Positions 2,059-27,933 of a stretch of DNA of 33,408 nt are shown one piece after another. This DNA is from an uncultured Gammaproteobacteria bacterium. Lineage in GTDB: Bacteria > Patescibacteriota > Patescibacteriia > UBA1558 > S5-K13. Each line of letters begins with the position of its first letter. Position 1 is the stretch's first letter. The position numbers and the translations under genes were made by a program. Where the stretch lies: contig CAYRHT010000006.1 of the NCBI GenBank assembly GCA_964424195.1, positions 1-33,408 on the forward strand, read 5' to 3'. Under the pieces are notes generated by a model, which had not been told where the DNA came from, made no database searches, and saw nothing but the letters and a program-made list of their open reading frames with translations.

Positions 2059-5000
2059 TTATTTTTTATTAGTTTTCTTTTCTACTTTCTTCTCTACTTT
2101 TTTAACAATCTTCTGTTTTCCCGTTTTTGGATCTATTCCAAAACCAGTACCAGCTGGAATTAATCGACCAATAATAACGTTCTCTTTCAGACCTCTTAAG
2201 TGATCAACTTGTCCAGAGATTGAAGCATTAATTAATACTCGAGCTGTTTCTTGGAATGAAGCTGCTGACAAGAAAGAATCAGTAGTTAGAGAAGCTTTGG
2301 TCATTCCTAAGAGCAAGATTGAACCCTTAGCTTCTTTCTTAGATTTCTCTTTCAAAGTAATATTAGCTTTCACAAATTGATTTCTAGTAATTATAGCGCC
2401 AGGGATAAATTCACTATCCCCTGGATCTTCAACATATACTCGAGAGAATAATTGTTTACATACTAATTCAATATGCTTATCATTTAATCTTTGTCCCTGA
2501 CTAGAATAGATATATTGGATTTCTTTAATAATATACTTTTGAACAACATCTTGTCCTTTAAGGGTATAAAGTTTTTTAAGATTAACACTTCCTTCAGTAA
2601 GTTGAGTACCAGCATCAACTAAATCATTATTCTTTACCCATAAATTAATATCATCTGGAACAATATATTCACCAACAATTGGTTTTTGAGCAATAATCTC
2701 AATTTTAGTTTTAGTTAAATGCACCATACCAGCATTAATTGATTTAATTTTTCTTCCATCAAGCTTAAATAATTCTTGTTTTTTCTTAATCTCTTCTTTG
2801 TCTTTAATTGCAATTTCTGCTTTTTCTGGAATATCATATCTTTCTAAAACATTTTCATTAGAGAAAACTTGAATTAGCTTTGATTTCTTTTTACCTTCAT
2901 CTTCTACATCAGAAATTTTAACCTTACCTGATAATTCACTAATCACAGCTTGCATCTTTGGATTTCTAACTTCTAAAATTTCTTCAACTCGAGGAAGACC
3001 TTGAGTAATATCACCACCAGCAATACCACCAGTATGAAAGGTTCTCATAGTTAATTGAGTTCCAGGTTCACCAATACTTTGAGCAGCAATAATACCTACT
3101 GCCGTTCCCATAGTAACTAGCTTATTATGTCCTAAGTCATAACCATAACATTTTTGACAAACACCATTCTTAGCTTTACAAGTTAACAAAGATCTAATAT
3201 GTACTTCTGCTACTTCTAATTCATCGATTAAAGCTGCTGCTTTCTTATCAACTAAAGTATCTTTCTTAACAATTGTTTTACCACTCTTAGGTTCTTTAAC
3301 TTCTTTAATTACAAATCTACCTAAAACTCTAGGTCCTAATTTCTTTCCCATATTTTCTGATTCTTCTTTAGTAATTACTTTACCCTCTTTATCTTTACAA
3401 TCTTCAGAAAGAATTAAAATATCTTGGCAAACATCAATTAGTCTTCTAGTTAGATAACCAGCACTAGCTGTTCTCAAAGCTGTATCAGATAGACCTTTAC
3501 GAGTACCATGAGTAGAGATAAAGTATTCTAGAACATCTAGTCCTTCATTAAAGTTAGCTTTAATAGGCAATTCAATAATTTCACCAGCTGGATTAATCAC
3601 TAATCCCTTCATACCCATAATCTGAGTCATTTGACTCCAAGAACCTCTTGATCCTGAATTAATCATAGAATAAATAGAGTTGTTCTTTGGAAAGACTCCT
3701 TTAGATTTTTCAGTAACTTTATTCTTAACACCTGTCCAAATCTCAACAACTTTTACATATCTTTCTTTGTTAGTTAAGAAACCATCTTCATACAAATCTT
3801 GAATTTTCATTACTTCTTTATTCGCTTTATCAATCAATTCTGGCTTATCTGATAATTCTGGAAGATCTGACATGCTCCATGATAGTCCTGATTTAGTAAT
3901 AAACTTCAAAGATAATTTCTTTAATCTATCTAAAAATTCAATTGTTTTTTCGTCACCATAGATATCTAATACTTTAGCTACGGCATCTTTAATAGATCCA
4001 GAATCCATTTCTTCATTTAAGTATCTTAACTTCTCTGGTAAAATTCTATTAAAAATTGCTCGACCTACAGTAGTAGTAACAATCTTATCCCCTATTTTTA
4101 TTCTAATTAGTTCTTGTAATCCAATACCTTGTAAATCATAGGCTGCTAAAGCTGCTGTTCGATTAGCAAAAAGTCTCATCTTTTTTTCATCAACATCATC
4201 ATCAACAACAGCAGTTAAATAGTTAGCACCCCAGACCATGTCTTGAGTTGGAACAACTATTGGATCACCAGTAGCTGGTTTTAACAAATTTTTAGAAGAT
4301 AGCATAAGTTCTCCTGCTTCTTTTTTAGATGCTTCAGTTAAAGGAACATGAACCGCCATTTGATCTCCATCAAAATCAGCATTAAAAGCAGCACAAACCA
4401 TTGGATGAATTTGAATAGCCTTACCTTCAATTAGTTTTGGTTTAAAAGCTTGAATACCTAATCTATGAAGAGTTGGAGCTCTATTTAATAATACATAAGC
4501 GTCTTTAGTAATTTCTTCTAAAATATCCCAAACATCATCTCCACCTAAATCAATATATCTTTTAGCACTTCGAACATTATGAACAATTTCTCTTTCAATT
4601 AATTTAGAAATTACAAATGGTTTAAACAATTCTAGAGCCATAGTCTTTGGAATACCACATTCATGAAGTTTAAGTTGAGGTCCAACCACAATTACTGAAC
4701 GACCAGAATAGTCTACTCGTTTACCAAGTAAGTTTCTTCTAAATCTTCCTTGTTTTCCTTTTAACATATCAGCTAAACTCTTCAACATTCTCTTTTGTCC
4801 TGTTGAAGCTGTAACTGTTTTACCATGTCGAGCATTATTATCAATTAAAGCATCGACTGCTTCTTGAAGCATTCGTTTTTCATTTCTTAGAATAACTTCT
4901 GGAGCATTAAGGTCTTTTAATCTCTTTAATCTATTATTTCTATTAATAACTCTTCGGTAAAGATCATTTAAATCAGAAGTAGCAAAACGACCACCATCTA

Positions 5001-12142: not shown

Positions 12143-12757
12143 TTAATTTATTTTTATTTGAAGATTAATTAACTCTTCTTTTACCTGTTGAGGGGTTTTA
12201 AATAATATTCCCTATATTCCTGCTTGTATTGCGCCCTCAATATTTTCTATATAATCATCAATAAAAACAACTTCTTCTGGTTTATCTTTTAGCTTATCTA
12301 AAATAATATTATATATTTTACTATCAGGCTTAACTATTTTCTCAGCACAAGAAAAGACAATTGCATCAAAATATTTATCATACTTGTTTTCATAAAAATA
12401 TTCCATCGTTGGAATTTCTGTATTCGATAAAAAACCAATTTTATAACCATTTTTCCTTAAATCTCTTAGAAGCTGATACATATCTTTCTTATCTAGAAAA
12501 ACATTATTTACTGCCTCTTTCCATAAAGAATCTGATTTTGGCTCATTAATATTTAATTTATCACAAATTTCTTTCCATAAAGTATTCTCTAAAATAGTTC
12601 CCTTTTGAAACTCTATAAATATATCAGTTTCTTCAGAAAAGATAGTTTTTAATAATTTTAACTCAACTCCTAAAACTTTAGCACAGTATTTTATTACCTC
12701 TTCCAGAGGTTGATCAATAAGAACACCTCCCCAATCAAATATTATCGTTTTAATCAT
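12143..12757 (-). pseudogene. HAD-IA phosphatase interrupted by an in-frame TAG (12212-12214)
   Basis: FDWGGVL, LSNT, KPD and FIDD motifs. After ...AIQAGI-TAG the same frame continues GILFKTPQQVKEELINLQIKIN-TAA, a typical HAD C-terminus, ending 11 bp before the next start codon. Confidence 0.75.
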
Positions 12758-13857
12758 TGTTTAATAGGCATGATTATATACACATAATCCTTGTCATTAT
12801 CTGACTTTATTAACCCTGGACTAGCATTATCATTAATCTCTAAGATTAAATTACTATTACCTAAATTAGCTAAACCATCTAAAAGATAACGATAATTAAA
12901 AGTAATTTCATTTTCAATACCCTCTATTTTAGCTTGAACAGTAGTAATGTTCTCCCCTAATTGATTACTAGTAGACATTAAAACTATTTCATTCTTATCT
13001 GGTACAAAACTCAATTTAACATCATTAATTCCTGGTTTACAAAACAAACTAGTTCTTTTAATGGCTTGAGTTAATTCACTAACTCCAACCTCTATTGTTG
13101 TTTTAGATTCTGTAGGAATTATTTGTTTGTAATCTGGATAAGAACCTTCAGTTAATCTAGATACTAACTCAATTCCATCAGCAGCGAATAATATTTGGTT
13201 TTCATCAACATAAAGTTTTACATTTTCTTCTGAAGTATCACTAACTATTCTAATCATCTCTTGCACAGTCTCAATTGGAATAATAATTTTACTATCTCCA
13301 ATTGATTCATCTAAATTAATATGTTTTTCTGCTAAACGATATGAATCTGTTCCTACTAAAACTACTTTCTGACCTTCAATGTTTAAAAAAGTACCAGATA
13401 TCTCTGGTCTAGTTGAATCTAAAGCTACTGCAAATACTGTTTTAGACAAAGCACTTCTTAAAACATTTGTTTTTAATATATATTCATTTTTCTTATCTAC
13501 TCCTGGTAATAATGGAAAATCTTCTGAACTTAAAGTATTAATTGAAGTTTTATCATTAGCACATTCAATTTTTAATTTATCTTCTTCTAATTCTAATACT
13601 ATATTATCTCTTGGCAAGAGATTAACAAAGTCAGTTAAAAGTCGAGCTTGAACTGTACATTTTCCTTCAACTTCAACTTTAGCTCTAACTCTACAACTTA
13701 TACCAATTTCTAAATTTGTAGTTGTTAAAGTAACTTCTCCTTTTTCAGCTGTAATTAAAACATTATTTAGAATTGGTAAATTAGCATTCTTACCAGCTAA
13801 ATGACTTACAGCATGTAATCCTTTAATTAAGTTTTCTTGTAAGCAAATTATTTTCAT
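12754..13857 (-). CDS. dnaN: DNA polymerase III beta clamp
   Basis: TTTNLEIGI, GTDSYRLAE, YPDYKQIIP, FNYRYLLD, YIIMPIK. Lies downstream of dnaA. Confidence 0.98.
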   Translation of the reverse strand: MKIICLQENLIKGLHAVSHLAGKNANLPILNNVLITAEKGEVTLTTTNLEIGISCRVRAKVEVEGKCTVQARLLTDFVNLLPRDNIVLELEEDKLKIECANDKTSINTLSSEDFPLLPGVDKKNEYILKTNVLRSALSKTVFAVALDSTRPEISGTFLNIEGQKVVLVGTDSYRLAEKHINLDESIGDSKIIIPIETVQEMIRIVSDTSEENVKLYVDENQILFAADGIELVSRLTEGSYPDYKQIIPTESKTTIEVGVSELTQAIKRTSLFCKPGINDVKLSFVPDKNEIVLMSTSNQLGENITTVQAKIEGIENEITFNYRYLLDGLANLGNSNLILEINDNASPGLIKSDNDKDYVYIIMPIKQ

Positions 13858-14139: not shown

Positions 14140-15501
14140 TTATTCATATAATCTTTGTTTGAGTAGTTCAATATCATTTTTAAGCTTTTCATTCTCTTTA
14201 ATTTCTTCACTTATCTTGTTAAAAGCATGAATAGCAGTAGTATGATCTCTTCCACCTAGTTCAGTTCCAATATTTGGATAAGAAGCATTTAATTCTTGTC
14301 TCATTAAGAACATACATATTTGTCTAGGCACTACTAACTCTTTCTTTCGAGAGTTTCCAGTTAACTTTTCTAAAGTTATATCAAAATACTCAGATACTTT
14401 TTTAAGAATCTTTTTAGAAGTTAAACCAGTAGTTGTTTGTTGAGGAGATATCTTTCCTAAGATGTTTTTTACAGAGTCTAAAGTAATATCTTCTTTACTT
14501 AATTGATTTACAGCTATAATTCTGTTTAAAGCTCCTTCTAACTCTCGAACATTATTCCGAGCGACATTAGCAATATATTCAATAACATCATCGGCAATAT
14601 TAAAATGAATATTCTTTTCTTCTATTTTTGATTGTAAAATAGCTACTCTAGTTTCTAAATCAGGATGTCCAATATCAGCAATCATTCCAGATTCAAATCT
14701 AGAAGTTAATCTATCAGCAATTGCTGGTAAAGACTTTGGAGGACGATCAGAGCTAATTACAATTTGTTTGTTTTGTTGATGAAGAGTATTAAAAGTATGA
14801 AAAAACTCTTCTTGAGTTCTTTCTTGTCCTTTCATAAATTGAATATCATCTACTAATAGTACATCTGCTTCACGATATTTCTTTTTAAACTCATCTATTT
14901 TTCCAGTTTGGATAGATTTTATATAATCAGTGGTAAAGTTTTCACTACTAACATAGACTAATTTACAATTAGGAATACTTTTTTGAATTTCATTCCCAAT
15001 AGCATGCATTAAATGGGTTTTCCCTAAACCTACTTCACCATACAAGAATAAAGGGTTATATACTTTTCCAGGCTCTTTAGCAGCAGCCATAGCAGCCGCT
15101 TTAGCTAGTTCATTTTGTTTACCAGTTATAAAACCATCAAAGTCGTATTTTTGATTTAAATTGAAACCATTTTCAGAACTAGTAGTTATATTTTTAGGTG
15201 TTTTAATTTCTTCAATACTTACTTTTTTAAGTTCTGGTTTATTTTTTACATCCTGAGAAATTTTAAAGATTAATTTTTTTACATCTTTACTACCTAAAAC
15301 ATTATTAAGAGCTTCTAATATCTTTTTATTATATTTATTCTCTAACCATCTCTTAGTAAATCCATTAGGAACAGCAATTAAAGCACAGTCTTTTTCAATA
15401 TCAATAATATATGTATTCTTAAACCAAGTTGTAAAACTTGCTTTTGATATTGAAAGTTCTAGTTCACCTAAGATAGCTTGCCATGTTTTTTCTTTGTCCA
15501 T
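14140..15501 (-). CDS. dnaA: Chromosomal replication initiator DnaA
   Basis: YNPLFLYGEVGLGKTHL (Walker A), LLVDDIQF, RNNVRELEGAL, GGRDHTT. Confidence 0.99.
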   Translation of the reverse strand: MDKEKTWQAILGELELSISKASFTTWFKNTYIIDIEKDCALIAVPNGFTKRWLENKYNKKILEALNNVLGSKDVKKLIFKISQDVKNKPELKKVSIEEIKTPKNITTSSENGFNLNQKYDFDGFITGKQNELAKAAAMAAAKEPGKVYNPLFLYGEVGLGKTHLMHAIGNEIQKSIPNCKLVYVSSENFTTDYIKSIQTGKIDEFKKKYREADVLLVDDIQFMKGQERTQEEFFHTFNTLHQQNKQIVISSDRPPKSLPAIADRLTSRFESGMIADIGHPDLETRVAILQSKIEEKNIHFNIADDVIEYIANVARNNVRELEGALNRIIAVNQLSKEDITLDSVKNILGKISPQQTTTGLTSKKILKKVSEYFDITLEKLTGNSRKKELVVPRQICMFLMRQELNASYPNIGTELGGRDHTTAIHAFNKISEEIKENEKLKNDIELLKQRLYE

Positions 15502-17403: not shown

Positions 17404-17742
17404 ATGATTGCTAAAAAGTTTCGTTTACATAAAAAAAGTGATTTTGATGAGTTAGCTAAAAGCTCTAACAAATTTTATAGTAATAACTTTGTTTTAAAGT
17501 TTATTAAAAATGAAGAAGATTTTAATTGTTTTGCAGTAGTTGCTTCTAAAAAGATTAGTCTTAAAGCTGTGATTAGGAATAAGGTTAGACGAAGAGTATA
17601 CGAAGTTATTCGTTTAAATATGGATAGTTTTAAAAAGAGCTTTAAGATTATTATTTTTGTTAAAAAAGGAGTTTTAGAGATGGAATATAAAGAATTAGAA
17701 CAAGAAGTTCTTTCTTTATTTAAAAAAGCAAAATTAGTATGA
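17404..17742 (+). CDS. rnpA: RNase P protein component
   Basis: [19 protein letters not shown] (RNR motif) and synteny. Confidence 0.95.
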
Positions 17743-17990: not shown

Positions 17991-18767
17991 ATGTTAATGC
18001 AACTTTATACAACAGTCCTCTATCAACCTCTTTTTAATCTATTAGTATTTTTCTATAATATAATTCCAGATATTGGAATAGCTATTCTTCTTTTAACTAT
18101 TCTTGTTAAAGCAATAATTTGGCCTTTATCTCATAAAGGTTTGAAATCTCAAAAAGTTTTACAAGATTTACAGCCAAAATTAGAATCTTTAAAAGCAAAG
18201 TATAAAGATAATAAAGAAAAGCTTGGTCAAGAAACAATGGCTCTGTATAAAAGAGAGAAAATTAATCCGATGGCTTCTTGCCTTCCTCTTTTAATTCAGT
18301 TTCCAATCATTATTGCTGTTTTTAGAGTTTTTAGAGCTATATTTGTAGAGACAGTTGATTTCAGTCTATTATACTCTTTCGTTAAAGTTCCAGAAATTAT
18401 TAATCCAATGATGTTAGGTTTCTTAGATTTATCTAAACCTCAAATAGTATTAGCTATCTTAGCTGGTTTAGCTCAATTCTGGCAAAGTAGAATAATGTTA
18501 AAGAAAACTAAGAAAGATACTTTAGGTCCTGATGGTAAGAAAAAAGAATTAAGTTTACCTCAAACAATGAGTAAACAAATGATGTATTTTATGCCAGTAA
18601 TTACTGTATTTATTGCAGCTAGTTTTCCAGGTGGTTTAGCTCTTTATTGGTTAGCAATTACATTATTAGGAGTTTTAGATCAAACCTTTATTAATAAGTC
18701 TATGGAGAAATCAAAAGATTCTATTTCTCCATCAACCCCTCAGTCTGAGATTATTGATGTTAAATAG
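17991..18767 (+). CDS. yidC: YidC/Oxa1 insertase (short form)
   Basis: LYKREKINPMASCLPLLIQFP, FPGGLALYW, and synteny. Confidence 0.96.
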   Translation: MLMQLYTTVLYQPLFNLLVFFYNIIPDIGIAILLLTILVKAIIWPLSHKGLKSQKVLQDLQPKLESLKAKYKDNKEKLGQETMALYKREKINPMASCLPLLIQFPIIIAVFRVFRAIFVETVDFSLLYSFVKVPEIINPMMLGFLDLSKPQIVLAILAGLAQFWQSRIMLKKTKKDTLGPDGKKKELSLPQTMSKQMMYFMPVITVFIAASFPGGLALYWLAITLLGVLDQTFINKSMEKSKDSISPSTPQSEIIDVK

Positions 18768-23041: not shown

Positions 23042-24358
23042 TTATTTTTCCTCTTTAGTTTCTTTTTCTTTCTTTTCTTTTTTAACTTTCTTGGTAGTAG
23101 CTTTTTTCTTAGGCTTCTTTACTTCTTTTTCAGTAGTTTCTTTTTTTTCTTTTGTTTTCTTAGTTTTTTTCTTTTCAACTTTATCTTCTTTTACTTCTTC
23201 TACCTCTTCTTCTTTATCGTCTTCCTTATCTAAACTCTCAGCTCCTTCAATATCAATCTTCCAACCAGTAAGTTTAGCAGCAAGTTTTACATTTTGACCG
23301 TCTCGACCAATTGCTAGAGATAACTGATCTTCTTCAACTTGAACTATAGCTGAGCTTTCTTTTTTGTTTAATTCAATATTCATGATTTTAGCTGGAGACA
23401 AAGAATTCTTAATAAAGGTAGCAGCATCTTTATTCCATTGAATAATATCAATCTTTTCACCACCTAATTCATTAATAATAGTTTGAACTCGAGAACCTTT
23501 TTGACCAACACAAGAACCAACAGGATCAATGTTGTCTTCTTTACTATGAACAGCAATCTTAGTTCGAGAACCAGGATCACGAGCAATAGCTTTTATTTCT
23601 ACAATACCATTTGAAATTTCAGGAACTTCTAAAGTAAATATCTTATTAACTACTTCTGGATGAGCTCGAGAAACAATAATTCTTGGTCCTCTGTTACTAT
23701 CCTCTACTTTTAAGATGATTACTCTTAATCTTGAACCAGTTGAATAGTTATCATTTCTAACTTGTTCTTCTGGTGGTAATAGTCCCATAGTCTTACTTAA
23801 ATCAACAATAACATTTGGTCCTTCTCGTCTTTGAACAATAGTATTAATAACTTCACCTTCTCTTTTCTTAAATTCATTAAGAATAGTTTCTCTTTCTGCT
23901 TCTCGTAATCTTTGAATAATAACTTGTTTAGCAGTTTGAGCAGCTATTCGACCAAAGTCACTAGGAATTTCTAATTTAATTTTTAATTCACCATCAAGTT
24001 TAGCTTTTTTAGAAACTTCTTTAGCATCGCTAATCATTAATTCTGTTTTAGGATTAAATCTATGGAAGTCTTCTGGCATTTCTTCGTTTTCTTTTAATGA
24101 ATCTCTAATCTCTTGATATTCTTCAGCTTCTTTTTCTAAGTCTTTGTCTGCGACAACTATTTTTTCATCCCAAACTTCTATATTACCAGTATCTAAATCA
24201 AATTTAACTTTAATGTTTTGATTTTTGTCACCAAAGTCTTTACGGTAAGCAGCTCCGAGAGCAGCTTCAATACTTTCCAAGACTGAATCTATGGAAATAT
24301 TTTTTTCTTCGCAAATAACTTGAATAGCTTGTTTGATTTCTTCTATATTTTGAAACAT
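23042..24358 (-). CDS. nusA: Transcription factor NusA with a charged C-terminal tail
   Basis: FGRIAAQTAKQVI, S1 domain, KH motifs ARDPGSRTKIAV, CVGQKG and AIGRDGQNVKLA. Confidence 0.98.
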   Translation of the reverse strand: MFQNIEEIKQAIQVICEEKNISIDSVLESIEAALGAAYRKDFGDKNQNIKVKFDLDTGNIEVWDEKIVVADKDLEKEAEEYQEIRDSLKENEEMPEDFHRFNPKTELMISDAKEVSKKAKLDGELKIKLEIPSDFGRIAAQTAKQVIIQRLREAERETILNEFKKREGEVINTIVQRREGPNVIVDLSKTMGLLPPEEQVRNDNYSTGSRLRVIILKVEDSNRGPRIIVSRAHPEVVNKIFTLEVPEISNGIVEIKAIARDPGSRTKIAVHSKEDNIDPVGSCVGQKGSRVQTIINELGGEKIDIIQWNKDAATFIKNSLSPAKIMNIELNKKESSAIVQVEEDQLSLAIGRDGQNVKLAAKLTGWKIDIEGAESLDKEDDKEEEVEEVKEDKVEKKKTKKTKEKKETTEKEVKKPKKKATTKKVKKEKKEKETKEEK

Positions 24359-24383: not shown

Positions 24384-24414
24384 AAAAAAACTAGTATAAA
24401 TATAATATACTAGT
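24384..24414 (-). terminator. Terminator-like attenuator in the nusA leader
   Basis: Minus strand ACTAGTATA-TTATATT-TATACTAGT plus a T run (24390-24384), ending about 25 nt before the nusA ATG. Confidence 0.65.
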
Positions 24415-24422
24415 CTAATAAC

Positions 24423-24451
24423 ATCATAATCCTTTTATGGAATCAGGTCAA
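24423..24451 (-). promoter_or_regulatory. Proximal nusA promoter
   Basis: TTGACC (24451-24446), 17 bp, TATGAT (24428-24423). Confidence 0.7.
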
Positions 24452-24460
24452 GGGAATTTA

Positions 24461-24719
24461 AAATCCTCATATTACTGCACCCAAGAAAACTACATCAAGA
24501 ATTACTCGAGCGAATCTTAAAAAGATGGCCAGACTAATCCTGTCAGTAATTTCCATGCTTGTCGTGGATGCAGGAACATGAGGATTTACTTTTATCTATA
24601 TAGCTTACACATTACTACATCCAAGAAAATTATTTAGAGAAAATGTCTAGTCGTAACCAGATATTATCTTTTAATAATTTCCATGCTTGTCGTGGATGCA
24701 GAAATGTATAAGTTATATA
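24461..24719 (-). ncRNA. Unclassified tandem structured RNA: two ~125-nt hairpins with a shared core
   Basis: 27-nt perfect direct repeat at 24547-24573 and 24675-24701. Each copy pairs with a partner arm in its own unit. Core-stem mismatches become G-U only on the minus strand. Confidence 0.6.
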
Positions 24720-24730
24720 AGCAACATATT

Positions 24731-24758
24731 AATATAGCATACTGATAGAATTTGTCAA
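24731..24758 (-). promoter_or_regulatory. Promoter immediately upstream of the tandem hairpins
   Basis: TTGACA (24758-24753), 16 bp, TGn-TATATT (24736-24731). Confidence 0.65.
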
Positions 24759-24785: not shown

Positions 24786-24818
24786 AAAAAACATCTCAAG
24801 TTTAGAAGACAAGAGATG
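24786..24818 (-). terminator. Terminator after the 24834-25361 gene
   Basis: CATCTC...GAGATG followed by T6 on the minus strand. The loop is long. Confidence 0.5.
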
Positions 24819-26025: not shown

Positions 26026-26102
26026 GGGCCTATAGCTCAGCTGGTTAGAGCGCTTGCATGGCATGCAAGAGGTCAAGAGTTCGAATCTCTTTAGGTCCAC
26101 CA
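26026..26102 (+). tRNA. tRNA-Ala(GGC)
   Basis: Cloverleaf: acceptor GGGCCTA/TAGGTCC with G3-U70, anticodon arm CTTGC-ATGGCAT-GCAAG, TTCGAAT loop, encoded CCA. Confidence 0.97.
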
Positions 26103-26128: not shown

Positions 26129-27052
26129 ATGAATAAAGAAAATGTAATTATTTTAGGATCAGGACCAGCTGGTTTAACAGCTGGATTGTATTTAGCTCGA
26201 GCTGGGTTTAAACCTTTGTTGATTGAAGGACCAAGACCTGGTGGATGGTTAACTACAACTACTATAGTAGATAATTATCCAGCTTTTCCAGACGGAATAG
26301 ATGGTTTTGAATTAATTATGAAAATGCGACAACAAGCTGAGAAATATGGTTGTAGAATAGTAAGCGACGTCGCTCAAGAAGTGGATATCCAAGATGGAGA
26401 AGTTAAGATCAAAGGACAGAAAGATCAGTATCTATCAAAAACATTGATTATTTCTACTGGTACTAACCCAAGAAAATTGGGCGTAGAAGGGGAAGAAAAG
26501 TTCTGGGGAAAGGGCGTCGCTGTTTGTGCTACATGTGACGGCGCATTTTTTAAAGATAAAAAAGTAATGGTAGTTGGTTCTGGTAATACTGCTTTAGTTG
26601 ATGCTTTCTTTTTAACTAAATTTACTTCTGAAATTAAGCTTTTAAACAGAAAAGATGAATTTAAGGCTGAAGAGGTGAAAGTTAAAGAATTAAAGGATAA
26701 TAAAAACATAGAAATACTAGAATTTACTGAAATTAAGAAGTTTTTAGGTGATTCTAAGCTAGAAAAGGTTGAATTATTCAATAATCAGACTAATAAAAGT
26801 GAAGAAGTTGAGGTTGATGGTGTATTTTTAGCTATTGGACATAATCCTAATACAGAATTATTTAAAAATAGCTTAAAATTAACAGAAAAAGGATATATTC
26901 AAGTAGATCCTGGAACTACTAAAACTTCTCAAGAAGGCATATTTGCTTGTGGAGATGTTATGGATGATAAATATCAACAAGCTGTTGTTTCTGCTGGAAC
27001 AGGTTGTATGGCTGCTTTAGATGTTCAAAATTACTTAGATTCTTCAAAATAA
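26129..27052 (+). CDS. trxB: Thioredoxin-disulfide reductase
   Basis: GSGPAG FAD motif, CATCDG redox motif, FACGDV...QQAVVSAGTGC. Confidence 0.95.
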   Translation: MNKENVIILGSGPAGLTAGLYLARAGFKPLLIEGPRPGGWLTTTTIVDNYPAFPDGIDGFELIMKMRQQAEKYGCRIVSDVAQEVDIQDGEVKIKGQKDQYLSKTLIISTGTNPRKLGVEGEEKFWGKGVAVCATCDGAFFKDKKVMVVGSGNTALVDAFFLTKFTSEIKLLNRKDEFKAEEVKVKELKDNKNIEILEFTEIKKFLGDSKLEKVELFNNQTNKSEEVEVDGVFLAIGHNPNTELFKNSLKLTEKGYIQVDPGTTKTSQEGIFACGDVMDDKYQQAVVSAGTGCMAALDVQNYLDSSK

Positions 27053-27195: not shown

Positions 27196-27780
27196 ATGAA
27201 AACTATATTAGCAACAACCTCTCCTCATAGAATAAAGGCTTTTCAGAAATTAGATCTAGATTTTATTACAGAAGCTAGTAATGTAGATGAATATACTCCA
27301 GAAAGACCAGGAGGTCCAAAAGAATTAGTAAAATATTTAGCTAAATTAAAGGCTGAGGCAGTAATCAAGAATCATTCTGAAGGTATTGTTATAGGTTTTG
27401 ATTCAGTGGGTTATTTTAATGGGAAAATATTGGAAAAACCTCAAAACAAAGAAGAATCTATTAGTAGATTAAAAACTTTATCAAATAACACTTATTCTTT
27501 TTATACTGGTATTTATATGTTTAATTTAGATAATGGTATAAGTCTCTTGGATTCTGTTAAAACAGAGCTCTCAATGAAAAATATTGATGAAAAGGAAATA
27601 ATTAAGTATTTAAAACAAGATTCTAAATATAATACTTATGCTCATGGATATGATCCTTTAGAACACTATAGTTCTACTTTTGTAAAAGAAATTAAAGGGA
27701 GTTGGAGTAATGTTTTATTAGGAATTCCCTTATCAAAAATTATGGAAATGTTATTTGAAATAGGTTATAAATTAGATTAG
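27196..27780 (+). CDS. maf: Maf-family nucleoside triphosphate pyrophosphatase
   Basis: ILATTSPHR, LAKLKAEAV, IGFDSV...GKILEKP, NVLLGIP. Confidence 0.88.
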   Translation: MKTILATTSPHRIKAFQKLDLDFITEASNVDEYTPERPGGPKELVKYLAKLKAEAVIKNHSEGIVIGFDSVGYFNGKILEKPQNKEESISRLKTLSNNTYSFYTGIYMFNLDNGISLLDSVKTELSMKNIDEKEIIKYLKQDSKYNTYAHGYDPLEHYSSTFVKEIKGSWSNVLLGIPLSKIMEMLFEIGYKLD

Positions 27781-27858: not shown

Positions 27859-27933
27859 GTTCCAATAGTTCAATGGATAGAACAAGAACCTCCTAAGTTC
27901 TAGATCCAGGTTCGACTCCTGGTTGGGACACCA
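27859..27933 (+). tRNA. tRNA-Arg(CCT)
   Basis: Acceptor GTTCCAA/TTGGGAC, anticodon arm AGAAC-CTCCTAA-GTTCT, TTCGACT loop, encoded CCA. Confidence 0.95.

Follow-up and report, generated by a model that had tools for sequence, protein, structure and literature searches.

Several classes of RNA resemble, in one respect or another, the element described here: the signal recognition particle (SRP) or 4.5S RNA (RF00169), 6S RNA (RF00013), the CsrB/RsmZ sponges and the Y RNAs, the processive antitermination RNAs such as put of phage HK022, and the tandem riboswitches of the glycine, NAD+-I, and guanidine-II types. The element itself consists of two long hairpins that follow one another upstream of nusA in a stretch of DNA of 33,408 nucleotides (nt) (contig CAYRHT010000006.1), hereafter called the window, to whose positions the coordinates refer; all features of the RNA and of nusA lie on its minus strand. 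The lineage belongs to the Patescibacteria, or Candidate Phyla Radiation (CPR), which account for a large share of bacterial diversity and have tiny genomes, few known regulators, and members that mostly cannot be grown alone; to our knowledge, next to nothing has been learned of their non-coding RNAs other than the universal ones. We report here that the tandem hairpins represent a new and widespread class of small RNA in the Patescibacteria, present here in duplicate.

Like members of this family, the SRP (4.5S) RNA is a single-copy rod of ~110–130 nt with paired ends, in which fixed internal loops interrupt a covarying hairpin; it has its own promoter and terminator, and the long strand of its asymmetric loop lies on the 5' side, as in domain IV of the Escherichia coli 4.5S RNA. 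Unlike it, the family has no GNRA tetraloop, no AGG/AGCA loop, and no conserved AGCA in the 3' strand; its own loop, 10 nt against 1 nt, sits one helical turn and two helices below the apex, and not within ~10 nt of it as the asymmetric loop of SRP domain IV does; it is duplicated in tandem and truncated in phages; and neither the window nor two typical members match the SRP model at an E-value (E) of 10 or less. 6S RNA is also a rod-like, trans-acting RNA with a large internal loop, and its dose-dependent titration of a conserved machine, RNA polymerase, is the behavior to which we liken the role proposed below. However, 6S RNA measures ~180 nt and carries a two-sided bubble that mimics an open promoter, whereas the family loop faces one U; the window and the two typical members gave no RF00013 match at E ≤ 10 and do not classify as 6S RNA.

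The CsrB/RsmZ sponges and the Y RNAs are stand-alone RNAs as well, in which conserved short modules dock a protein; in CsrB-type RNAs the copy number of the module sets the capacity, and Y-RNA-like genes also occur in phages. The family has neither the GGA loop motifs, nor the Ro-binding bulged helix, nor the tRNA-like domain of these RNAs, and its repeated unit is the whole 130-nt rod and not the short hairpin of CsrB/RsmZ. The put RNA and other processive antitermination RNAs share with it paired hairpins, asymmetric loops, occurrence in phages, and a position near the start of a long operon, but put acts only in cis, on its own polymerase, whereas downstream of the host copies of the family stand terminator-like signals, convergent genes, or gene ends. 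Finally, tandem riboswitches combine two similar modules in series in one transcript; there, the tandem is the norm and stands in the 5' untranslated region (UTR) of a defined gene set, whereas the norm for the family is one unit with no consistent downstream gene.

Two Tandem Units in the Window

The minimum-free-energy fold of positions 24730–24440 consists of two hairpins, at 24720–24596 and 24587–24461, with an energy of −93.1 kcal/mol that none of 200 dinucleotide shuffles matched (−56.4 ± 4.7 kcal/mol; z = −7.76). This agrees with the first-pass annotation, made from the sequence alone, which had proposed two long tandem hairpins with a common core. The core contains a 27-mer, CTGCATCCACGACAAGCATGGAAATTA, that is identical in both units, with two copies in the 33-kb window and none elsewhere (chance expectation 0.00). 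As that annotation had also described, the outer stems of the two units differ in sequence while pairing is kept in both, and the 3' core arms, UGGAUGUAG and UGGGUGCAG, differ only by changes that G-U pairing tolerates.

The features that make up the RNA gene, with helices numbered P1 to P5 from the base to the apex, are as follows.

24758–24731, minus strand: promoter of the small RNA, with the −35 element TTGACA at 24758–24753, a 16-nt spacer, and the extended −10 element TG-c-TATATT at 24739–24731
24596–24720, minus strand: unit 1, complete as a family member, its apical hairpin short and of canonical form, CUGGU-UACG-ACUAG (from the fold and covariance model R1)
24683–24692, minus strand: asymmetric internal loop CGACAAGCAU of unit 1, with CCA/UGG below it, a G-C and a G·U pair above it, and a single U opposite
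24461–24587, minus strand: unit 2, likewise of the family, its apical hairpin enlarged (from the fold and model R1)
24555–24564, minus strand: asymmetric internal loop CGACAAGCAU of unit 2
24490–24501, minus strand: stretch UUCUUGAUGUAG, which the model alignment assigns to the 3' strands of P4 and P3 of unit 2
24455–24463, minus strand: U-tract GAGGAUUUUAAAUU, at and after the base of P1 of unit 2, the likely 3' end of an RNA of ~268 nt

The promoter, recognized already in the first-pass annotation, agrees with the consensus at 11 of 12 positions in addition to the TG of an extended −10 element, and places the predicted transcription start near 24724. Against covariance model R1, which describes the family, unit 1 scores 106.6 bits (E = 1.8e-28) and unit 2 scores 83.1 bits (E = 1e-24), and the opposite strand of unit 1 reaches 23.8 bits. 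Both units have the features by which R1 defines the family, namely P2, a closed 10-nt loop opposite one U, a P3 of 10–11 base pairs (bp), and a capped apex.

The suggestion that the module stands outside the known families was borne out. With the 4227 models of Rfam 15 in gathering mode, the window returned two tRNAs only and 18 homologous loci returned tRNAs only; neither the window nor typical, GC-richer members matched any other family. In E-value mode, the window and two typical members gave only sub-threshold hairpin or terminator look-alikes, of 20–31 bits against thresholds of 55–140, which are plant microRNA precursors and the rnk leader. Likewise, literature searches on structured RNAs of CPR bacteria, on SRP and 6S RNA, and on the loop sequence brought up only unrelated primer matches.

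Distribution of the Family

A scan of one genome per species with the pattern CACGACAAGCATGG, a gap of 45–75 nt, and TTCTTGG matched at least 120 stretches, of which at least 118 lie in Patescibacteria-type contigs, with one unit per genome. The labels among the matches listed include Uhrbacteria, Magasanikbacteria, Komeilibacteria, Kerfeldbacteria, "Parcubacteria", and Patescibacteria group. The two matches in Phyllobacterium and Dyella are due to chance, and model R1 gave at most 15.1 bits for one of the two chance matches of the pattern from non-CPR genomes (L078) and nothing at E ≤ 1 for the other (L036).

Many of the records (L007–L126) are titled "uncultured Gammaproteobacteria bacterium" and carry the RNA amid Patescibacteria-type synteny of VanW, Hsp20, and ClpP. 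These titles are probably wrong, since both the synteny and the RNA subtype are those of named Patescibacteria.

Because the species-scan pattern required both a 14-mer and TTCTTGG, the invariance of these two in the resulting alignment is circular. For this reason, weight must be given to an unbiased check, in which seven loci were chosen only by homology of a VanW-like neighbor protein (47–59% identity), and the DNA of six of them was examined. All six carry the RNA, at 106–117 bits, between smc and the VanW-like gene, and all six contain CCACGACAAGCATGG, with CUCUUGG replacing UUCUUGG in one. No variation of the CGACAAGCAU loop has been seen so far, in searches most of which could not retrieve members with a variant loop.

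Structure and Covariation

The family unit is a rigid rod of ~130 nt (about 125–136 nt) with neither a junction nor a pseudoknot. From the base upward, the consensus consists of P1, P2 (CYGYRUCCA paired to UGGRYRCRG), the CGACAAGCAU loop opposite one U, P3, P4 (AGG/CCU), an internal loop, and P5, in which a conserved G·U and a G-C pair lie beneath a stable tetraloop. In alignment A1, which comprises 122 sequences with a mean column identity of 51%, covariation of the helices is clear. Of 23 pairs in the RNAalifold analysis of this alignment, 17 have compensatory changes; P4 and P5, missed by the program on the raw alignment, were assigned from column statistics. Pairing holds in 93.0% of the paired cells, against 75.2% in column shuffles and 37–49% when the 3' partners were slid, and none of 500 shuffles reached the real alignment in any measure. 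A lack of covariation among homologues had been named in the first-pass annotation as grounds for abandoning its proposal; instead, 23 of 32 pairs show compensatory changes on both sides, in 758 cells.

Within this covarying scaffold, one module is fixed: the closing pairs CCA/UGG, the 10-nt CGACAAGCAU loop opposite one U, and then a G-C and a G·U pair. P3 above it keeps a constant length of 10–11 bp, P1, P2, and P3 covary freely in sequence, and the P4/P5 apical module is less conserved than the loop module, with apical loops that are UUCG-like or variable. The pairs that border the module have some latitude: the outer closing pair can covary (GCA/UGC in L249 and L253, UCA/UGA in L254 and L260, UCA/UGG in L200), and the G·U above the loop can change to G-C. 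Covariation also corrects two details of the earlier description. The loop, previously drawn opposite UCU, faces one U only, as the GG that follows it pairs with (U/C)C, including the conserved G·U; and the apical regions of the two units, previously taken as unrelated, both align to the P4/P5 module of the family.

The unit contains two conserved G·U pairs, and the opposite strand scores 22–31 bits where the RNA strand scores 106–117 bits, i.e., ~80 bits lower; together, these observations point to selection on an RNA of this strand and not on a DNA hairpin. No pseudoknot or other pairing partner for the loop was found within the RNA, its apical region, or its flanks, and 7-mers complementary to the loop show no excess in 118 flanking 8-kb loci, once the antisense strand of the gene itself is discounted. 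A small peptide starting at the AUG of the loop was considered and rejected: the frames differ, spanning 6 amino acids in unit 1 and 29 in unit 2, and the helix that comes next shows the covariation of an RNA.

A Stand-Alone Gene

The evidence supports one stand-alone small RNA of ~268 nt in the window, independent of nusA. In the eight loci of the window lineage, the promoter is conserved and the DNA upstream of it is unrelated, and conservation ends right after GGGGAUUUU at the foot of unit 2, so that the transcript most likely runs from ~24724 to ~24457. This is in keeping with one of the two readings offered in the first-pass annotation, an independent RNA transcribed from a promoter of its own. 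In L027, L042, and L050, homologues with a single unit, that promoter is likewise found ahead of the RNA. Across the family, 111 loci were compared with 111 controls: promoter-like sites stand upstream of the RNA in 42 loci (11 controls), and terminator-like sites follow it on the same strand in 77 (26 controls); a basal stem followed by a U-run is found in many other lineages as well. Since the U-tract after unit 2 is short in the window, some read-through into the nusA leader is possible.

The other reading, a riboswitch-like leader of nusA, is rejected because nusA is rarely downstream of the RNA and because the promoter and leader of nusA are present even in relatives without the RNA. In a context census, in which the open reading frames (ORFs) of 121 loci were clustered and representatives named with Pfam, nusA follows the RNA in five only: the window, L001, L002, L027, and L042. 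The promoter and the tandem RNA are present in L001 and L002, whose NusA proteins are 92% and 89% identical to that of the window; L003 (88%) and L005/L006 (82%) are without the RNA and retain the nusA promoter and leader hairpin, the latter being conserved in L001–L003, L005, and L006. Conversely, the sequence between the RNA and nusA has been replaced in L250, L259, and L271, and the RNA retained. More generally, the candidacy as a riboswitch or cis leader was dropped on finding neither a constant position in a 5' UTR nor a single gene set. With the element in the window not being a nusA riboswitch, a false lead is removed.

The elements that flank the RNA gene in the window are given below.

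25361–24834, minus strand: ORF of 175 amino acids upstream of the small RNA, ending in the hairpin and U6 run at 24818–24786
24786–24818, minus strand: weak terminator-like hairpin (CAUCUC...GAGAUG) with a U6 run, from direct reading, without a call in a consensus terminator scan
24423–24451, minus strand: promoter of nusA itself (TTGACC, 17-nt spacer, TATGAT), outside the small RNA
24384–24414, minus strand: nusA leader hairpin ACUAGUAUA/UAUACUAGU with a U7 run, just before the start codon and separate from the small RNA
23042–24358, minus strand: nusA (Pfam NusA_N and KH_5), the gene downstream of the RNA in the window lineage
next gene past nusA: H+-pyrophosphatase gene

The terminator that the first-pass annotation had placed at 24786–24818 is thus only in part confirmed, as the hairpin and U6 run are there, but they are weak and were not called by the scan. 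The nusA leader hairpin with its U7 run is a candidate attenuator of the terminator type, and the same arrangement occurs at 2915–2985 of L003 and 170–240 of L006. Autoregulation of NusA is described in Bacillus subtilis, and the hairpin is possibly of that kind.

Tandem Duplication

One unit is the norm of the family, and the tandem of the window is a lineage-specific duplication. Hence, the tandem module of the first-pass annotation is real, and even recurrent, but it does not define the element. L027 and L042, each with one unit, share the promoter of the window, and their units resemble unit 2 in P1 and in the enlarged apical hairpin; for this shared P1 and apical insertion, unit 2 is probably the ancestral copy. 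Unit 1, judging by the sequences, appears to have been added later, between the promoter and unit 2. A further claim, that an extra partial 3' arm in unit 2 offers an alternative pairing, holds insofar as UUCUUGAUGUAG is present at 24501–24490, but this stretch differs in the sister loci L002, L250, and L277, so that a conserved alternative pairing has no support.

A scan of metagenomes for two cores 117–147 nt apart yielded 29 loci, which were filtered with model R1 and by reading. Three groups of tandems emerged: that of the window lineage (L250, L259, L271, L275, and L277), that of L249 and L253, and that of L254 and L260, whose loci have 54–61% G+C and two nearly identical copies. The tandems of the latter two groups stand in the usual VanW, Hsp20, and ClpP synteny. 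There were thus at least three independent tandem duplications. The other 20 of the 29 loci, unrelated repeats that contain the 12-mer by chance, were discarded. L263, L265, and L270, from brine-lake metagenomes, contain arrays of GCGACAAGCATGGGCACACYRTGGTGCACATGCAAT with a 36-nt period and the same 12-mer, unrelated to the RNA family; without spacers, these look like a satellite-type repeat rather than clustered regularly interspaced short palindromic repeats (CRISPR).

Phage Copies

Viral contigs were scanned with 15-mers and gapped patterns and the matches were filtered with model R1. Only five (L141, L159, L160, L200, and L144) passed the model, nearly all others being chance; the best score among the other pattern-selected viral loci, searched at E ≤ 1 or E ≤ 0.01, was 18.8 bits (L147, E = 0.028). 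The copies that passed are as follows.

L159, 6369–6483: mini-RNA of 52 bits that lacks P4 and consists of P2, the loop module, a P3 of 10 bp, and a short cap
L141, 4132–4246: mini-RNA of the same phage type, of the same score and build
L160, 8566–8680: mini-RNA of the same phage type, of the same score and build
L200: copy of 59.6 bits with a GAAA cap, ~180 nt upstream of an 87-amino-acid ORF and groEL
L144, 2446–2582: copy of 48.6 bits whose match has 66% G+C, far richer than the others, in a 2.9-kb piece of an 84-kb contig labelled viral

The contig of the L159 type encodes small and large terminase subunits, a DnaB-like helicase, a DnaD-like loader, an HNH endonuclease, and a lysozyme-like domain, and the mini-RNA sits between leftward replication genes and rightward packaging genes. 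The L200 contig is unrelated to it and carries terminases, a ParB-methyltransferase, and a weak, sub-threshold portal-protein match; its segment 2490–4638 includes the 87-amino-acid ORF (2805–3068), which is probably a groES co-chaperonin candidate, and a phage-encoded GroEL (3070–4638). Both phage types have the RNA close to where a long block of rightward genes begins. The proximity of the L200 RNA to groEL, and of host RNAs to hsp20 and clpP, may be fortuitous, or it may hint at a connection with protein quality control. Copies in phages are complete and show covariation, unlike the 3' fragments left at attachment sites. A blastn search of GenBank phages with one host copy and one phage copy gave no match.

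Proposed Function and Alternative Explanations

With its strong covariation, a loop fixed across more than 100 species, and single-copy occurrence, the RNA is a strong candidate for a new RNA class that serves in housekeeping or in global regulation, a case that recurrent duplication and presence in phages strengthen. The reading we prefer, with a probability of roughly 0.5, is that the RNA acts in trans and serves as a scaffold or decoy by docking a conserved partner in the cell, most likely a protein. According to this proposal, the fixed loop module would be the docking site, and the RNA would work in the manner of 6S, CsrB, Y, or SRP RNAs, with an effect that scales with dose or valency. 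From the closing pairs, the single opposing U, the G·U pair, and the length of P3, all fixed amid freely changing helices, we infer the signature of a recognized three-dimensional module. Recognition of shape, as opposed to a pairing seed, is favored because the whole module is fixed, the loop has no partner within the molecule, and complementary 7-mers are not in excess. That units were duplicated head to tail under a single promoter more than once suggests a role for dose or valency, as does the reduced version in phages; dose dependence would account for the duplications, and likewise for a minimal phage RNA in which P2, the loop module, P3, and a cap are all that is left, P2, the loop, and P3 marking the likely functional core. 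More tentatively, and with less confidence than in docking itself, the RNA could be the core of an undescribed ribonucleoprotein or regulatory system confined to a large branch within the CPR, whose module engages a housekeeping machine, is tuned by duplication, and has been copied by phages to hijack or titrate the partner.

Several points weigh against a docking RNA. The mechanism is one that we infer and its partner is hypothetical; the gene neighborhood yields no such partner, and a search for proteins common to the phage fragments and the host loci, as a clue to it, returned none. The 10-nt single-stranded loop could equally fit a site of RNA kissing or pairing, or a ligand pocket. The invariance of the loop is partly circular, as most loci were retrieved by patterns that contain it, and the sole unbiased loci are the six selected by VanW, fairly close relatives of each other. 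The short U-tract after unit 2 leaves read-through into the nusA leader possible in the window. Furthermore, the loci are pieces of 8 kb to 33 kb of their genomes, which leaves some probability to a very divergent form of a universal RNA.

Many bacterial small RNAs work by pairing, and the loop, being 10 nt long, single-stranded, fixed, and devoid of a partner in the molecule, might serve to pair or kiss with an mRNA start, an rRNA, a tRNA, or the RNA itself, perhaps via its self-complementary CAUG palindrome, by which tandem copies could kiss each other. We nonetheless regard this as unlikely, as it is unusual for a plain seed that the closing pairs, the opposing U, and the length of P3 are fixed too; an internal loop is topologically poor for long duplexes; complementary sites are not enriched in the flanking loci; and a target constant across a class-level clade and its phages must be a very conserved RNA, none of which was identified. 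It is improbable that the module is instead a ligand-sensing aptamer acting in trans or the core of a new ribozyme, a view based on the pattern of conservation: the loop and its closing pairs do resemble a riboswitch aptamer or ribozyme core, and some riboswitches and self-cleaving ribozymes are likewise arranged in tandem or carried by phages, but a consistent downstream gene or expression platform is missing, the single internal loop comes with neither junction nor pseudoknot, and there is one housekeeping-like locus per genome in place of many mobile copies. The general look of 4.5S RNA, i.e., a single-copy rod of ~130 nt with paired ends, fixed internal loops in a covarying hairpin, a long 5' strand in the asymmetric loop, and its own promoter and terminator, raises the question of a universal RNA, SRP- or 6S-like, so divergent in this clade that the Rfam models do not recognize it. 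This is decidedly improbable in view of the lack of matches to either model in the window and two typical members, even at E ≤ 10, the lack of a GNRA tetraloop and AGG/AGCA symmetric loop near the apex, a fixed loop that lies ~30 nt from the apex and forms a bubble of 10 against 1 nt instead of a two-sided one, and tandem and truncated phage versions that would be odd for SRP RNA. No SRP-like motif or dnaX-type neighbor was found in the 8-kb to 33-kb pieces that hold the family loci, a result that is uninformative for the SRP reading.

A cis-acting leader of nusA, whether riboswitch, attenuator, or put-like antiterminator, would explain why the RNA lies directly upstream of nusA in the window lineage, L027, and L042; read-through past the short U-tract would permit it, and the phage RNAs stand near the start of long rightward blocks, where antitermination elements often sit. 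However, besides the rarity of nusA downstream, the next gene is convergent in ~49 loci and the RNA lies past the 3' end of a gene in ~41, and the RNA and nusA persist without one another or across replaced intervening sequence, as described above, which renders such a leader very improbable. A DNA-level repeat, such as a miniature inverted-repeat transposable element (MITE), a repetitive extragenic palindromic (REP)-like, attC-like, or transposon-end hairpin, or a phage attachment site, could likewise present a long imperfect inverted repeat, occur in phage contigs, and be associated with the ends of one related contig set near the nusA upstream region. Its probability is minimal given that selection is strand-specific (with conserved G·U pairs and an opposite strand ~80 bits lower), compensatory changes keep RNA pairing across species, and the phage copies are complete; the MITE or REP-like scenario envisaged in the first-pass annotation is excluded by two copies only, adjacent to each other in the 33 kb, with one per locus elsewhere, by the strand-specific signal, and by a syntenic chromosomal position with no sign of mobility. 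Whatever the partner of the proposed docking RNA, model R1 can be used to annotate the family in genomes and metatranscriptomes.

Genomic Neighborhood

The genes that most often accompany the RNA in the 121 loci of the census are given below.

VanW-like gene: 104 of 121 loci
Hsp20: 69 of 121 loci
ClpP: 44 of 121 loci
SMC: 42 of 121 loci
NrnA-like DHH protein: 40 of 121 loci
nusA, downstream: 5 of 121 loci

Usually, the RNA is found just past the 3' end of the VanW-like gene, in either orientation, and in one group it is upstream of that gene; the neighboring genes occur in three different orientations and are often convergent. The VanW, Hsp20, and ClpP neighborhood is synteny within the clade and not a cis-regulatory relation.

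In the six loci selected by VanW (L278–L283), positions ~2250–2500, between the RNA and the VanW-like gene, hold a conserved ORF of 70–82 amino acids without a Pfam match. It is present in five of these six Uhrbacteria-type loci, with no ORF call in L280. Beyond it come VanW, Hsp20, in some loci a TSP3-repeat protein, and then a giant protein of more than 3400 amino acids in five loci (1575 amino acids called in L283).

The contigs of L005 (30–95) and L006 (1–60) break ~380–420 nt upstream of nusA within a short tandem repeat, AACAGGTTT, of at least five copies, and the break falls exactly where relatives have the small RNA.

Elsewhere in the window, the segment 12754–18767 is the neighborhood of the chromosomal origin, with dnaN (12754–13857, minus strand), dnaA (14140–15501, minus strand), rnpA (17404–17742, plus strand), and yidC (17991–18767, plus strand); non-coding gaps at ~15.5–15.7 kb and 16.4–17.4 kb could hold oriC. 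The two tRNA genes of the window, at 26026–26099 and 27859–27930, lie on either side of a thioredoxin-reductase-like gene (26129–27052) and a Maf-like gene (27196–27780).

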